Source: Mustelus asterias
Taxonomy: Eukaryota
Assembly: GCF_964213995.1 (NCBI RefSeq)
Contig: NC_135825.1
Coordinates: forward strand, 12,400,001 to 12,464,000
DNA: 64,000 bases
Direction of reading: 5' to 3'
Positions 8,592 through 33,983 of the stretch are shown piece by piece; within the stretch, counting starts at the first letter, position 1, and each line of letters starts with the position of its first letter. The translations under genes and the position numbers were made by a program. The notes below the pieces were generated by a model. The model was not told the origin of the DNA, made no database searches, and worked only from the letters and a program-made list of their open reading frames with translations.

Positions 8592-8897
8592 GTGCATTGT
8601 GGGCAAAAAAGGAAATAACAGGAATTGTGGGAAGATCGATCACAATCGATTGTCACTATGGTGTGTGGTACCGGTCACACGTAAAATATTGGTGTCGTGG
8701 CTGGTTTCGCTGGTGTGATATTGTAGCAGCGACAAATCGGCAAAATGGCAGAATATCAATCACAGATGACAAGAGACAAGGAGTATTTGTTGTCACTATG
8801 AAGGATCTTCGCTCAGGAGATGCAGGAAAGTACAGCTGTGGAATTGAAACGTCTGGTCGCAATCAAATGTATAAAGTAAAGCTACAAATATCTGACG
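8592..8897 (+). CDS. Gene A exon V1: CD300/pIgR-type Ig V domain (MDIR/CMRF35-like receptor)
   Basis: tttcag|GT acceptor, GAC G|gtacgc donor, 306 nt, phase 1-1. ITIDCHY..KYWC-x6-C..RISITDD..DLRSGDAGKYSCG, with the extra C-C' disulfide typical of the CD300/pIgR/TREM family. Confidence 0.92.
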
Positions 8898-9728
8898 GTA
8901 CGCTATGCTCAGTGATTATCTTTATTACTTGAGAAAGGTCTTATGAATGAAGGTTTTGTGGATCCTCACTTCTGTGGTGAACTCCGACCTGGTTGTCCGC
9001 CAGGGCCTCCCGTTAAAACTCCAGTCCACGCTCCTTGAAGGGAGTCAGGAGACGCAGCTCAGGAACCCCACCGCTCCTGCTCGAGGCGATTATGGGCCGA
9101 CTTCTCCTGCGGGGACTAAAGTGGGGATTGAAAGGCTGATGGCCGGAAGGGCGCAGGGTGTTGCGGGAGTTCGGGCAATCGGGTGGCGTATATCGGGACC
9201 GTGCCTCAGAAGGCAGGAGTTGGAATGGGGGGGAATGGCGGTGCCAGAAACTTTGGAGGCTGGTGTTAGGGGTTCGGGTGATGGAAGGCCATGGGATGGA
9301 GTGCATCAACATGGGCATTCCAGGAGCGACAGAGGGCACTGATGGCAGGACAGGATGGACACTCACCCTTGCTGCCTGAAGGAGGTCATTCATTTCTTTT
9401 CCCCACTGGGCCATGTTCCTTCACTGCCACTGCCGCCGCCTCCCAGGCTGCATTGCCGGCCCAACCCCTGGGCCGCTGACCAACCTGAGGGAAGAATCTC
9501 ATCCTTCTCTCCTACATGGCATCCAGCTGGTGTCTCAGCTCTCCCTCGGTGAAGTGTGGAGCTGCCCCTCATGGTGCCAGCTTCCCCTCGCGACTGACTG
9601 CGAGTCCATCGTTAGAGCTTGAATTCAGCTCCCCCTTGTTAACGGCACACAGCTGTGGCCACTCTGGGTGAGTCACGTGTCTGGAGGCTCCATAATGACC
9701 CGATTCACATGGAGGCTCTTTCATTGCA

Positions 9729-10076
9729 TAGAAATCATAGAAACCCGACAGTGCAGAAAGAGGCCATTCGGCCCATCGAGTCTGCACCGATCACAATCCT
9801 ACCCAGGCCCTACCCCCATAGCCCTACACATTTACCCGCTAATCCCTCTAACCTACACATCCCAGGACACTAAGGGGCAATTTTAGCATGGCCAATCAAC
9901 CTAACCCGCACATCCTTGGACTGTGGGAGGAAACCGGAGCACCCGGAGGAAACCCACGCAGACACGAGGAGAATGTGCAAACTCCACACAGACAGTGACC
10001 CAAGCCGGGAATCGAACCCAGGTCCCTGGAGCTGTGAAGCAGCAGTGCTAACCACTGTGCTACCATGCCGCCCCCA
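9729..10076 (-). mobile_element. Full-length HE1 V-SINE with 6-bp TSD
   Basis: TSD ATTGCA at 9723-9728 and 10077-10082; empty site in the paralogous intron at about 18003 (tcattgcacttt). Confidence 0.93.
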
Positions 10077-10325
10077 ATTGCACTTTATTTAAAGAGAGAA
10101 GGGAATCCTTTAATTGCTTATTCATTGTCTTTAACTGTACAAAGCGATGGGCAGTAGTTGGAGATTTACTTATGTCCCTATAACGAGACAGAGGCCTTCC
10201 ATGCCCGGTGGACACCACAGGGGTTCGACTGTTTTATTGACCCCGTTCACCACATGTCATTTTGATGTTTTATGCCTCCTTTGAGATTTTATTCGAGTCA
10301 ATATCTCTTTAAGAGGTTAATTAGT

Positions 10326-10531
10326 TTCGATTTGATTTGATTTATTATTGTCACATGTATTAGGATACAGTGAAAAGTATTGTTTCTTGCGCGCTATACA
10401 GACAAAGCATACCGTTCATAGAGAAGGAATGGAGAGAGTGCAGAATGTAGTGTTACAGTCATAGCTAGGGTTTAGAGAAAGATCAACCTAATGTGAGGTC
10501 GGTCCATTCAAAAGTCTGATGGCAGCAGGGA
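10326..10531 (-). mobile_element. Rex1 3'-tail fragment (paralogous copy at about 18253-18457)
   Basis: Reverse complement of the tail seen at 2970-3202. Confidence 0.75.
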
Positions 10532-11259
10532 GTTATCCCTCAACTTGTTGATTTAGTTTCATTTGTTACCCCAAAATACAACAACGAGATACAGGGCGAG
10601 ATTTTCCACTCATCCCACACATTCTCTCGCCAGCTTCCAGTTTCAGGGTGGGAGCGTTCCAGCTCACCCTCAGAGAACTGGAACCAATCAAATCTACACT
10701 CCCATCGAACGCTCCAAAACTTCAAACACAAATCTGGCAATATTGGCTCCTTTTCTGCCGTGGATTATTTCAAGTTCTCACCAACTAATTCACATTCAAA
10801 ACAAGAACAATGAAATAGCATTGAAGCTCATTCTTCAGAGACGTCAGGATCAGGGTCAGGCAGCTGTTGGATTTTCAAGGATAAAGTAAACTCACCCGGG
10901 CTTGCCCCTCGCTGTCTCCATTCTCAGATCAGCAACTCCCACCTCAGCCAAGTGAGACCCTCCAGCACCAGGACCCCACCCACTCTTCCTGATTGGATGA
11001 TGAGTTCAGTCCCTAGCCTTTAATTGGCTGGAGCATTGGAGATAGCAATGGGCAAGCCTAAAGTGTAACGCGCGGTGTCTGGACCCAGACTATCTCCCGT
11101 GTCCCGTTCCCAAACCCTGATTAAACATCCACCCCATGGAGACATAGATGTCAGAATCCAACATGGCGACCCCTGGCTGAGACACTGAAGGGAAAAACAA
11201 GAAGGTATTTGATGTTTGGATGTTCACCCAGTATCTAAATGATTGTTTCCATTCTACAG

Positions 11260-11583
11260 AACCCGTCTCTGTTCCTGTGCTCCGATTTTTGACACCACTT
11301 TATGTCTCACTTCCTGGGGGCTCAGTGTCCGTCTCCTGTGAGTCTGTCCAGGGATCACTTCCCATTCAGTACACATGGTACGAAAAGACCCCGTCTGAAG
11401 ATTCAAAGATCTCTGACACCAATAAACTGGATCTACATTGTCAATCCTTCAAACAGCAACATCATCAATATTACTGCACAGCCTCAAATCACCAGGGAGA
11501 AAAATCCAGTGAAATGGTTACAGTGTCAGTGATCAACAGATCAGGGGAGAATTGCAGTTATGAGATACAAAATAGACGCCGTG
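11260..11583 (+). CDS. Gene A exon C1: C2-type Ig domain
   Basis: ctacag|AA acceptor, G|gtaagt donor, 324 nt, phase 1-1; EPVSVP..VSCESVQGSLPIQYTWY..YYCTASN. Confidence 0.92.
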
Positions 11584-31805: not shown

Positions 31806-31905
31806 TTTGCTCAGTTCCTTCATCTGGAATGTGATTCGCTGGGGGCTCTTTACCCTCCTGGTGATTTGTGTGATTTCGGCCACATGGTACACGAGAAAAT
31901 CTCAG
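31806..31905 (+). CDS. Gene A transmembrane exon with TM arginine
   Basis: ttccag|T ... CAG|gtgagg, phase 2-0; SLLSSFIWNVIRWGLFTLLVICVISATWYTRKSQ. Confidence 0.88.
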
Positions 31906-32059
31906 GTGAGGATTATGGACTTTACAACAATCATTCTGCAAGTTTTCCATCAATTATCAAAAAAAACATTGATCGCAGATATTGTAAAGAAAAGGTTGCA
32001 TTGAAATCAATGTCCACAGGGATAAACAAAGCCATCGGCACCAATGGTGGCTTTTTTAA

Positions 32060-32292
32060 AGGAGATGTAAGGGGGAGGTTTTTCACACAAAGGGCGGTGA
32101 ATGCACGGCCAGAGGAGGTGGTGGAAGCAGATTCTATAACATCATTCAAGAGGCATCTGGATAGATACATGAAAAGGCAGGGAATAGAGGGATATGAACC
32201 ACGTAGAGGCAAGATAATATTAGATTAGAGAGGCATCTGTATCAGCACAGACTTGGTGGGCCTGTTCCTGTGCTGTACTGCTCTTTGTTCTA
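32060..32292 (+). mobile_element. CR1 3' fragment
   Basis: GDVRGRFFTQR..FKRHLDRYM plus CR1 tail. Confidence 0.8.
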
Positions 32293-32559
32293 CCGTATTG
32301 CTCAGAACGAGTCCCACGGTTGTCACTCCGGCAGGACAGGCTGTGATTGAGCTCACCCTGACAGCAACTTAGTTTTCTAAAGATTGAAATGCTATTTTTA
32401 AAGTCTGGCCAGATTTATGAATTTTAAGATGGAACCTCACTCCCCACGTACACCCCCCCTCCACCGCAACTCAAACATCATGTAATACCACCCCCACCAC
32501 TCCCAACACTGCTCCCAGCGTTGCTTGGCAACTTCCCTGGTACTTTCCCCGGCCAAGTG

Positions 32560-33690
32560 GCACGAATGTTATTTGCCACATGTCAAACCAAGCCTGGATA
32601 TTGTCCAGGTCTTGCTGCAATTGGACGTTGATGGCTTCAGTATGTGAAGAGTCGCGAATTGTACTCAACATTGTGCAGTCAACAGCAAACATCCTCACTT
32701 CTGACCTCATGTTGGAAGGAAGGTCATTGCTGAAGATGGTTGGGCTGAGAATCCTTTGCACCCCGTGTAGTGATGTCCTGGAGCTGAGATGGCTGACCTC
32801 CAACCATAACAACCACCTTCCTTTATGCCAGGTATCACTCCAACCTGTGGAGGGCTTTCCCCCCCCGGGGGAAAGATGTAAGATTGTATTATTACCCCCA
32901 TTCACTCTGATTTTGTTCAGGCTCCTTGATACCACACTCGGTCAATTGCTGCCTTGATGTCAAGGGCAGTCACTCTCACCTCACCTCTGGCATTCAGCTC
33001 TTTAGTCCATGTTTTAACCAAGGCTGTAATGGGGCCAGGAGCTGAGTGACCCTGGCTGAACCCAAACTGAGCATCCATGAGCAGGTTATTGCTGAGTAAA
33101 TGCCTCTTGATGGCGCTGTTGATGACTTCTTCCATCACTTTACTGATTAGAGTCATAGAGTCATAGAGGTTTACAGCATGGAAACAGGCCCTTCGGCCCA
33201 ACTTGTCCATGCCGCCCTTTTCTTTTTAAAACCCCTAAGCTAATCCCAATTGCCCGCATTTGGCCCATATCCCTCTATACCCATTGTACCCATGTAACTA
33301 TCTAAATGCTTTTTAAAAGATAAAATTGTACCCGCCTCTACTACTGCTTCTGGCAGCTTGTTCCAGACACTCACCACACTCTGTGTGAAAAAATTTCCCC
33401 TCTGGACGCTTTTGTATCTCTCTCCTCTCACCTTAAACCTATGCCCTCTAGTTTTAGACTCCCCTACCTTTGGGAAAAGATATTGACTATCTACCTTGTC
33501 TATGCCCAATAATCTCAATGATTATTGAGATTAGACTGATGGGGCAGTAATTGGCCAGGTTGGATTTGTCCTCCTTTTTATGGAGACCTACGAGCAATTT
33601 TCCACATTGCCGGGTAGATCCCAGTGTTGTAGATGTACTGGAACAGCTTGCCTCGAGGTGCGGCAAGTTCTGGAGCAGAAGCCTTCACAA
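32560..33690 (-). mobile_element. L2/CR1-group LINE RT fragment with a nested CR1 3' fragment (about 33148-33508)
   Basis: AQFGF..VRVTALDIKAAIDRVW, VRMFAVDCT, QQDLDNIQAW; nested LFPKVGESKTRGH..FFTQSVV. Confidence 0.75.
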
Positions 33691-33935
33691 TTATTGGCAG
33701 AGAATTAATCACAGCCACAGGGAAACATCAGTTACCCATGAGAAAGTCATGTTACATGTCTTCATGAGGGATACAAATGACAGTTCTTCCCAGCAATGGG
33801 TGATCAATGTGATCTCAAAACTGCCCCAAGCTTTGCCTCAATCTGCTGCCACTTCCAGAATTCTGTTCAAATCCGAAATGTCAATTGACGCATTGTTCTC
33901 CCAGTCTCAACGAATCTGATGATTTTCTTTTCCAG

Positions 33936-33983
33936 TCACTGAATGAATCCGATTCTCACAGTTCAAACAAAGTGGGAAATTGA
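33936..33983 (+). CDS. Gene A terminal cytoplasmic exon
   Basis: ttttcttttccag|TCA phase 0; SLNESDSHSSNKVGN*; AATAAA at 34081; conserved paralog at 58155-58202. Confidence 0.75.
   Translation, partial: SLNESDSHSSNKVGN

Follow-up and report, generated by a model that had tools for sequence, protein, structure and literature searches.

Gene A of Mustelus asterias, a shark MDIR gene with a broken C exon between its second and third V exons

Exon structure of gene A and gene B

The window analysed here, 64,000 nucleotides of contig NC_135825.1 of Mustelus asterias, contains a modular immunoglobulin-type receptor gene (gene A) and a paralog (gene B). Their exons, apart from C2' of gene A, are as follows.

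8592-8897, plus strand: exon V1 of gene A, phase 1-1, a pIgR/CD300-type V-set Ig domain and an exact match to residues 14-114 of XP_078098258.1
11260-11583, plus strand: exon C1, C2/I-type Ig domain, phase 1-1, without the first Cys present in C3
16865-17170, plus strand: exon V2, phase 1-1, 93.8% identical to V3 and 88.2% to V1
23896-24201, plus strand: exon V3, phase 1-1, with an identical contig from run X4 over 23895-24172
28126-28449, plus strand: exon C3, membrane-proximal C2/I-type domain, phase 1-1
29748-29832, plus strand: stalk exon, a Cys followed by Ser/Thr-rich sequence, phase 1-2
31806-31905, plus strand: TM exon of phase 2-0, N-x-x-R located close to the outer end
33936-33983, plus strand: tail exon, 15 residues and a stop, no tyrosine motif
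43177-58202, plus strand: gene B, with its leader at 43177-43213, V exon to 45511 and C exon at 47789-48112
3' part of gene B, plus strand: stalk at 53501-53585, TM exon to 54984 and tail at 58155-58202

The five intact Ig exons of gene A (V1, C1, V2, V3 and C3) are all open, AG/GT-bounded and of phase 1-1, and each V exon matches the Pfam V-set profile at E values of about 1e-9 to 1e-10, far above chance. A preliminary description of this DNA had read the gene as V1-C1-V2-C2'-V3-C3 with phase 1-1 junctions throughout. The six positions stand, five of them as phase 1-1 exons, but C2' has lost its donor and its frame runs into a stop, which leaves two intact C exons rather than the three of the proposed (V-C2)x3 architecture. 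The eight intact exons match the RefSeq protein XP_078098258.1 exactly, and C2' is absent from it. The workable product of gene A, a V-C-V-V-C ectodomain followed by a stalk, a TM segment with an arginine and a 15-residue tail, is identical to this protein; V-C-V-V-C-TM, originally offered as an example of exon skipping, is therefore the product to expect.

Searches with blastn, nhmmer and tblastn, using as queries the copies within the window and the ends of 8 relatives, found no leader, stalk, TM or tail copies between the Ig units, and a single stalk, TM and tail set lies at the end of the gene, both as first described. No leader for gene A was found in positions 1-8591 of the window. The joins from leader to V1 and from C1 to V2 are predicted by the RefSeq model only, whose leader lies outside the window. 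Between the leader and the stalk of gene B lie a single V and a single C, which make up the V-C2 unit initially ascribed to it; its TM exon has CAC at the canonical acceptor site. No protein identical to the gene B V domain was present among the 21 matches listed, which is weak evidence. Pairwise dN/dS values are 0.98, 0.91 and 0.40 among the V exons of gene A and 0.23-0.67 among its C exons; positive selection on the Ig exons is unsupported, as no pairwise value exceeds 1.

Placement in the MDIR family

Gene A belongs, as a shark representative, to the MDIRs (modular domain immune-type receptors), a family already known from skates. In BLASTP, XP_078098258.1 aligned with skate MDIR5 at E 2e-121 (56% identity in a block of 333 aa and 55% in one of 291 aa, with the stalk, TM and short tail included), and the reverse search with MDIR5 as the query recovered XP_078098258.1 at E 3.5e-194. 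The family was reportedly named by Cannon et al. in 2006 and is said to combine CD300/pIgR-like with C2/I-type modules in varying numbers. Ectodomains of this kind are found in gene A as well as in MDIR2, MDIR3 and MDIR5: with one pair of profiles, gene A reads V-C-V-V-C, MDIR2 V-C, MDIR5 V-C-V-C and MDIR3 V-V-C-V-C. MDIRs are type I membrane proteins that have either a charged TM residue or an ITIM tail; gene A encodes one with an Arg in the TM segment and a tail devoid of tyrosine motifs, and it belongs to a multigene family, with 7 Mustelus models, on a contig of a single length (58,715,561 b), in addition to gene B and relatives in 21 labelled species. The comparison of domain counts across relatives, as had been suggested, revealed at least two V-C units in 53 of the 119 filtered relatives and at least three in 20 of them. 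The (V-C)n layout is common among shark and ray gene models, and the design of gene A is ordinary within the MDIR family. In a quick tree (104 columns), the V domains of gene A and of the MDIRs fall inside one chondrichthyan group of 110 rows (SH-aLRT 87), which is set apart from sturgeon and paddlefish and is unresolved internally; it assigns gene A orthology to no single MDIR.

MDIR5 of the clearnose skate (ABC86800.1) shares with gene A the V and C modules and their alternation, the stalk Cys, the W-x-x-x-R-W motif of the TM segment and a short tail without tyrosine motif, at 55-56% identity over blocks of about 300 aa. It differs in its V-C-V-C order, gene A having one extra V and a dead C exon, and in a K-x-x-R motif where gene A has N-x-x-R. 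MDIR3 (ABC86797.1) also has five domains with a V-V pair, but the pair is placed elsewhere, whereas MDIR2 (ABC86796.1) has the V-C order of gene B. Unlike gene A, both MDIR2 and MDIR3 have an uncharged TM segment and a long tail with tyrosine motifs (inhibitory type). MDIRs comprise activating and inhibitory receptors, according to the accessible part of PMC3031540.

Mammalian CD300 and pIgR had been the initial yardsticks for this gene; the skate MDIRs, being V-C, V-V-C-V-C and V-C-V-C already, are more fitting ones. Among solved structures, V3 matched CD300lf (E 1e-17, the best single-domain PDB match), CD300a (8e-14), TREM2 (3e-6) and NKp44 (1e-5), as well as the multi-domain pIgR, and every V domain of gene A has four Cys, with the second Cys pair as in CD300. 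However, these best solved relatives lack FcRL-like C domains. A single V is present in each of CD300, TREM and NKp44, and pIgR, which binds and transports polymeric Ig, has V domains only; with three V and two intact C exons, gene A fits neither arrangement. The closest solved relative of C3 is FcRL5, and a Foldseek search with the C3 model returned nothing at E 0.001 or better. The three V-set domains also set gene A apart from FcRL/XFL proteins, the ectodomains of which consist of FcR-type domains only. The paired XFL receptors of Xenopus do share the N-x-x-R TM segment with a short tail, and their architectures were diversified by inter- and intragenic recombination, as described in the accessible part of PMC2413239; their ectodomains are built from FcR-type D1-D6 domains, and their TM segment and tail lie in one exon compared to two in gene A. 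The same part of that paper gives an N-x-x-R TM segment with a short tail as a mark of FcR-gamma-associating receptors, and adaptor-linked activation via the TM arginine is predicted for gene A. RefSeq names the gene A protein 'polymeric immunoglobulin receptor-like', which is misleading.

The broken exon C2' and its surroundings

The interval between V2 and V3 contains the following features, here listed together with V2 and its flanks.

16782-18964, plus strand: V2 and flanks, collinear with 8503-11142 (V1-C1 intron), switching from V3-like to V1-like at about 17180-17190
18965-23068, minus strand: LINE insertion without counterpart in the unit-1 copy of the intron
23182-23430, plus strand: C2', a truncated copy of C1 (97.6%) with an intact acceptor and a read-through stop at 23475-23477
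23470-23705, plus strand: solo-LTR-like insertion of 236 bp, TG...CA, with a 5-bp target duplication (GTCCC), TATAAA at 23568 and AATAAA at 23647

The similarity of C2' to C1 stops at 23430, the final 75 nt and the donor are gone, and the reading frame meets a TAA at 23475, preceded by phase-compatible GTs only at 23260 and 23362, both within the domain. A deletion of about 5.1 kb probably took the end of C2' together with its donor. The missing part comprises a further strand and the greater part of the last long one (C3 model residues 79-92, pLDDT 91), as well as a Cys that 102 of 104 internal C domains retain. Because most of the last long strand and this conserved Cys are missing, the remnant domain would likely misfold. 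The adjoining LTR has very high depth in DNA-like runs, marking it as a repeat. The LINE, which we take to be of the CR1 type, contains a 255-bp inverted copy (21998-22252) of 18868-19122, and its empty-site joint, 18964-23069, is present in runs X1 and X5, the depths of which are not a measure of copy number.

Duplication history of gene A

The V1-C1 and V2-C2' introns are collinear duplicates, as noted at the outset, and are 96-98% identical over most of their length, repeat insertions aside. Of the 65 informative sites up to 17180, V2 agrees with V3 at 46, with V1 at 15 and with neither at 4, whereas after 17180 it agrees with V1 at 39 of 41. Furthermore, V2 and V3 are sisters in the quick tree (SH-aLRT 93). 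Since the V2 exon is V3-like, whereas both the intron downstream of it and C2' are akin to unit 1, the copied block would most likely have been intron-C1-intron-V, i.e., a C-V cassette rather than the V-C2 cassette previously assumed. The more general proposal, that of one multi-domain receptor gene with alternating V and C modules that grew through intragenic duplication, is upheld.

An ancestor V1-C1-V3-C3, with the architecture of skate MDIR5, may thus have gained the intron-C1-intron-V block through unequal crossing-over just 3' of V exons. Later, the deletion of about 5.1 kb, of which the break itself is visible, would have carried away the end of the second C exon along with the greater part of the following intron. 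V2 would then have been spliced directly to V3 and the gene kept in frame, because all its Ig exons are of phase 1-1. A single clean duplication is, however, insufficient and diverged parents or later conversion are needed, since V2 and V3 (dS 0.12) are more diverged than C1 and C2' (dS 0.03), and also more than the introns, and a V1-like patch lies within V2 at 16937-16951. We infer that diversity arises by germline gain and loss of domains between genes and alleles rather than by a splicing machine.

Transcript evidence and alternative readings

Read runs were compared with positions 16670-24300 of the window. X4, for which run type, tissue and library are unrecorded, was judged RNA-like from its empty intron bins and contigs beginning at acceptors. 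A 336-nt X4 contig is identical to V3 over 278 nt from the acceptor, and its remaining 58 nt equal all depth on the V2 3' end (0.623 computed, 0.62 reported). In a 289-nt contig, a C3-like exon begins at the acceptor and the remaining 58 nt fit the V3 3' end (2.561 computed, 2.56 reported). This bin-depth arithmetic, from one run at a depth of 2.7-5.3, suggests that X4 joins V2 to V3 and V3 to the C3-like exon. Of the junctions initially put forward for checking, 17170-23896 is thereby supported and 17170-23182 loses ground in this run, as the V2-V3 contig wholly accounts for the depth on the V2 3' end; 24201-28126 is supported as regards a C3-like exon, although the C part of the contig shows 18 differences from C2' where C3 predicts 20 (2 within 9 nt of the joint). 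No second splice path was seen in X4 on 16670-24300. X4 leaves the first 250 nt of V2 uncovered and has no cover that fits C1, which at a depth of about 3 is uninformative either way. Contigs of X14 that end at the V3 donor, with 12 differences, or at the break in C2', with 5, are another organism's paralogs and were excluded.

Gene A likely has one main product, a five-domain V-C-V-V-C membrane receptor of the MDIR family, for which leukocyte activation via an ITAM adaptor on the TM arginine is predicted; by family analogy, its ligand is presumably a cell-surface lipid, an immunoglobulin or a microbial ligand. That one gene instead yields a receptor repertoire (V-C, V-V-C, V-C-V-C and V-C-V-V-C) by combinatorial skipping of its intact exons, the mechanism of the preliminary description less the impossible six-domain form, appears quite improbable. 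The phase 1-1 exons, all five intact ones, do permit in-frame skipping, the models of two relatives (P0017 and P0016) are identical over blocks of 122, 211 and 535 aa that surround a single missing C, and in Callorhinchus the V of isoform X1 is absent from X2 and X3. However, these isoforms are computed models, the skipping of C2' is forced by its break, and X4 shows one path only on 16670-24300; moreover, exon symmetry by itself predicts nothing, because IgSF domain exons are generally of phase 1-1. We also see little likelihood that C2' serves as an alternative last exon, ending at the stop at 23475 with the poly(A) signal of the LTR, its product being a secreted V-C-V decoy whose end is broken. 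Its acceptor is intact, its frame is open to the TAA, an AATAAA follows on the same strand at 23647, and soluble relatives (SITR) are described from fish in the accessible part of PMC3031540; against this, the V2-V3 contig explains all X4 depth on the V2 3' end, the matches listed for X4 include no C1/C2'-type contig, and the remnant, short of strand and Cys, would probably not fold.

It is very unlikely that V1-C1 is an orphan or part of another transcript, with the expressed gene being V2-V3-C3 or fed by exons upstream of the window. Gene B has its leader about 2 kb from its V compared to none in 1-8591 for gene A, similarity to the first intron of gene B extends only about 280 bp upstream of V1, and computed models of the family do fuse neighbours, one of them (P0003) containing an internal leader. 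Nevertheless, both V1 and C1 have an open frame and intact splice sites, the stretch from C1 to V2 contains no leader, RefSeq joins these two exons, and C1 and its introns were copied into the V2-V3 interval. Least probable is an assembly artefact, such as two falsely duplicated haplotypes: while the assembly of recent tandem repeats is difficult, no contig spans all of 16670-24300 and some relatives' models have identical V copies, the copies in gene A are 2-12% different and carry distinct insertions, marked by target duplications that are intact or by empty sites, one X4 contig ties V2-specific to V3-specific sequence, and DNA-like runs show the unit-1 letters at 20 of the 21 listed intron differences checked.

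Gene A is a well-preserved record of domain gain and loss, and the locus illustrates at base level how an MDIR V-V junction can arise, by C-V duplication followed by deletion of the copied C exon. A wider reading, which we hold to be rather unlikely, would see in the MDIRs a germline domain shuffling common to sharks and rays, with unequal crossing-over of phase 1-1 V/C exons that keeps altering receptor length (from a single V-C unit to six or more), V-V forms produced by exon death, domain-skipped isoforms and possibly an LTR-ended secreted decoy in gene A. If so, gene A would be a snapshot of the process, possibly still polymorphic in the population. The MDIR family is little studied, yet genomes now hold dozens of multi-unit members, and the accessible parts of PMC7916673 and 10.1101/2022.04.21.489081 make no mention of it. 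A census would bear on how paired innate receptors that mix CD300/pIgR-type and FcRL-type domains diversify in cartilaginous fish.

Finally, the idea that internal C domains lose their first Cys for want of a following stalk Cys was rejected: terminal domains keep it in 56 of 82 cases compared to 41 of 104 internal ones, but rays and skates account for this signal, and in Mustelus 16 of 17 internal C domains retain the first Cys.

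Gene structure and family membership

The window is vertebrate genomic DNA, and its forward strand carries two related Ig-superfamily receptor genes. In the upstream one, gene A, the phases of eight exons combine into a single frame:

Exons of gene A (all with an AG acceptor; all with a GT donor except the last exon)
8592-8897, forward strand: V1, phase 1-1
11260-11583, forward strand: C1, phase 1-1
16865-17170, forward strand: V2, phase 1-1
23896-24201, forward strand: V3, phase 1-1
28126-28449, forward strand: C3, phase 1-1
29748-29832, forward strand: stalk
31806-31905, forward strand: transmembrane (TM)
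33936-33983, forward strand: tail (last exon)

The V exons matched Pfam V-set (E about 1e-9 to 1e-10) and the C exons Ig_3/Ig_2 (E about 1e-6). Queries for the leader, stalk, TM and tail, run against the window, returned one stalk, one TM and one tail copy for gene A but no leader, and these exons were likewise found just once in gene B, the downstream paralog. This bears out the preliminary description, which had placed a single terminal set behind units without a leader, stalk or TM exon between them. Its series V1-C1-V2-C2'-V3-C3 with phase 1-1 junctions holds for the five Ig exons but not for C2', which is broken, so that its observation as a whole is partly confirmed.

A V3 query matched at 100% a 611-aa RefSeq protein of Mustelus asterias, XP_078098258.1 ("polymeric immunoglobulin receptor-like"), residues 13-611 of which map exactly onto V1, C1, V2, V3, C3, stalk, TM and tail; the model skips C2', and its leader lies outside the window. 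The same search retrieved skate modular domain immune-type receptor 5 (MDIR5, ABC86800.1), which aligns with XP_078098258.1 in blocks of 333 aa (56% identity) and 291 aa (55%); the alignment takes in the stalk, the TM with its W-x-x-x-R-W motif and the short tail. MDIR5 as query retrieved MDIR3 and MDIR2, and domain profiles built from the window exons and MDIR5 read MDIR2 as V-C, MDIR5 as V-C-V-C and MDIR3 as V-V-C-V-C. All three are cDNA clones; the founding MDIR paper is that of Cannon et al. 2006 (PMID 16738934), cited in PMC3031540 and PMC2413239. Among solved structures, V3 is nearest to pIgR, CD300, TREM2 and NKp44, and C3 to FcRL5. MDIRs of skate and zebrafish are described in PMC3031540 as multigene activating and inhibitory receptors resembling CD300, TREM, FCAR and pIgR. 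Gene A can thus be placed in the MDIR family as a new member that RefSeq already models; its product has five domains, and its sixth Ig exon is dead. Searches of the open-access literature turned up no study of MDIR gene structure in sharks.

Near its outer end, the gene A TM has the motif N-x-x-R; the tail is devoid of a tyrosine motif. This combination makes gene A likely to be an activating member. Its relatives either are of this type or have an uncharged TM and a tyrosine-motif tail, as in paired receptors. According to PMC2413239 (section 6), receptors with this kind of TM and a short tail associate with FcR-gamma, among them the mammalian NKp46, GPVI and Fc-alpha-R and the XFLs of Xenopus.

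The truncated exon and splicing

C2' (from 23182) is 97.6% identical to C1 across 249 nt, and the match ends at 23430. After this break, the sequence aligns with the stretch immediately preceding V2. The second copy therefore lacks about 5.1 kb, the counterpart of the C1 end and of most of the intron between C1 and V2. Read-through of C2' meets a TAA at 23475, and all phase-compatible GTs before this stop lie within the domain, the strongest-looking being common to all four C exons. An AlphaFold model of C3 (mean pLDDT 91.4) places the last long strand at residues 79-92, whereas C2' stops at 82; C2' also lacks a Cys conserved in 102 of the 104 internal C domains. Therefore, the six-domain (V-C2)x3 receptor proposed previously cannot be made from this sequence. 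At 40 nt beyond the break lies a solo-LTR-like element of 236 bp (TG...CA), flanked by a 5-bp target duplication.

Four sequencing runs were compared over 16670-24300. X4 was judged RNA-like from its empty unique intron bins, its library type being unrecorded. Its record 24 (336 nt, depth 2.74) contains 278 nt identical to V3 starting at the acceptor, and the remaining 58 nt predict a depth of 0.623 in the V2 3'-end bin (reported, 0.62). In record 23 (289 nt, depth 5.32), a C exon begins at the acceptor and differs from C2' at 18 sites, compared with 20 expected for C3 (two within 9 nt of the joint) and 5 for C1; its remaining 58 nt give 2.561 for the V3-end bin (reported, 2.56). A 30-nt word common to V2 and V3 would form the overlap between the two records, as expected of adjoining graph contigs. 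We interpret these figures as splicing of V2 to V3 and of V3 to a C3-like exon, with joints deduced from bin depths in one low-depth run, and as leaving no room for a second contig at the V2 3' end. Of the junctions proposed for checking, 17170-23896 and 24201-28126 thus fit the X4 depths, the latter as V3-to-C3-like. The runs X1 and X5 are DNA-like: 20 of the 21 listed intron differences that were checked carry the letters of unit 1, and both runs show the LINE-free site as a joint.

The suggestion that symmetric exons allow combinatorial skipping stands insofar as the frame permits it, and database isoform sets of relatives do vary by whole domains. However, omission of C2' is forced by the broken exon, a single path is seen in X4, the one run examined, and Ig exons are usually of phase 1-1. 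Combinatorial skipping of intact Ig exons is a minority reading, as is an LTR-ended secreted form via C2', and the earlier interpretation as a whole is partly supported.

Origin of the extra domains

V2 shares 93.8% identity with V3 and 88.2% with V1. At sites differing between V1 and V3, the V2 region is V3-like at 46 of 65 up to 17180 (15 V1-like, 4 neither), but V1-like at 39 of 41 beyond. Identity is 96-98% for C2' against C1 and for the V2-C2' against the V1-C1 intron, which for the introns agrees with their description as collinear duplicates. The cassette, taken to be V-C2, is instead probably C-V: in the simplest account, unequal crossing-over just 3' of the V exons of a V1-C1-V3-C3 gene would have repeated intron-C1-intron-V, the second copy of which would then have suffered a deletion. 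dS is 0.12 for V2/V3 and 0.03 for C1/C2', which fits a single duplication less well; together with five V1-like sites in V2 at 16937-16951, this points to parents that had already diverged or to conversion afterwards. No pairwise dN/dS exceeded 1. In V2 (16856-16864) and V3 (23887-23895), a shared 6-nt deletion has left a single AG acceptor; gene B V has tandem AGs 6 nt apart (45188-45202), the first of which is lost in V1 (8577-8591) through a point change. A quick tree built from 116 V domains mainly clusters repeats by lineage and shows V2 and V3 as sisters (SH-aLRT 93) nested in a 7-row Mustelus group (SH-aLRT 98).

Domain architectures among relatives

The proposed comparison of domain counts across paralogs and species was run as a census of 273 proteins, 143 of which had at least one V and at least one C at 60 bits or more; removal of 24 with linkers >20 aa (possible fused models) left 119. 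Among these, mostly computed models in which the linker filter cannot catch all fusions, 53 have at least two V-C units, 20 at least three and 14 a V-V pair. The order V-C-V-V-C occurs in 2, gene A and a basking shark protein. XP_078098257.1, also from Mustelus asterias, is a model with the true order V-C-V-C-V-C and has a tyrosine-motif tail. With 116 of the 119 species-labelled, models of at least two units occur in 16 of 21 species and of at least three in 11. The longest forms (6-9 units) are uncertain. The skate and Mustelus database models P0001, P0004, P0006 and P0010 have 5-9 successive V-C units with short linkers, some with identical V copies, and could represent genuine long receptors, model fusions or duplicates from assembly.

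Gene B and non-coding elements

C3 (28126-28374) and gene B C (47789-48037) are 97.2% identical, whereas V3 and gene B V share 83%; gene B V has 98% protein identity to two V domains of XP_078098257.1. On these sequence comparisons, domain exchange between activating and inhibitory paralogs is suggested. None of 21 matches was a protein identical to gene B V. The gene B TM acceptor (54882-54893) reads CAC, compared with CAG in gene A, and an in-frame CAG lies 9 nt further; gene B may use the latter, be secreted or be a pseudogene. Its last intron contains an assembly gap (147 N, 56183-56329).

A LINE in the gene B C-stalk intron (49121-52985) is close to intact, with open frames of 362 and 642 aa that we take to be endonuclease-like and reverse-transcriptase-like. 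In gene A, a 255-bp piece of intron and LINE end (18868-19122) has an inverted copy (98%) at 21998-22252 inside the same LINE, and contigs of other LINE copies skip this piece; the C1-V2 intron holds an inverted pair of 183-nt LINE-end fragments (12669-13214, 94%). Non-coding blocks 3' of both genes (37236-40773 and 59118-60453) are 85-95% identical, compared with 72% for the flanking 3' UTR regions. The interval between the genes holds a match to 5S rRNA (74.6 bits) and a tRNA-Ile-like call (35664-35782, 38989-39077), which are likely repeat heads or pseudogenes.
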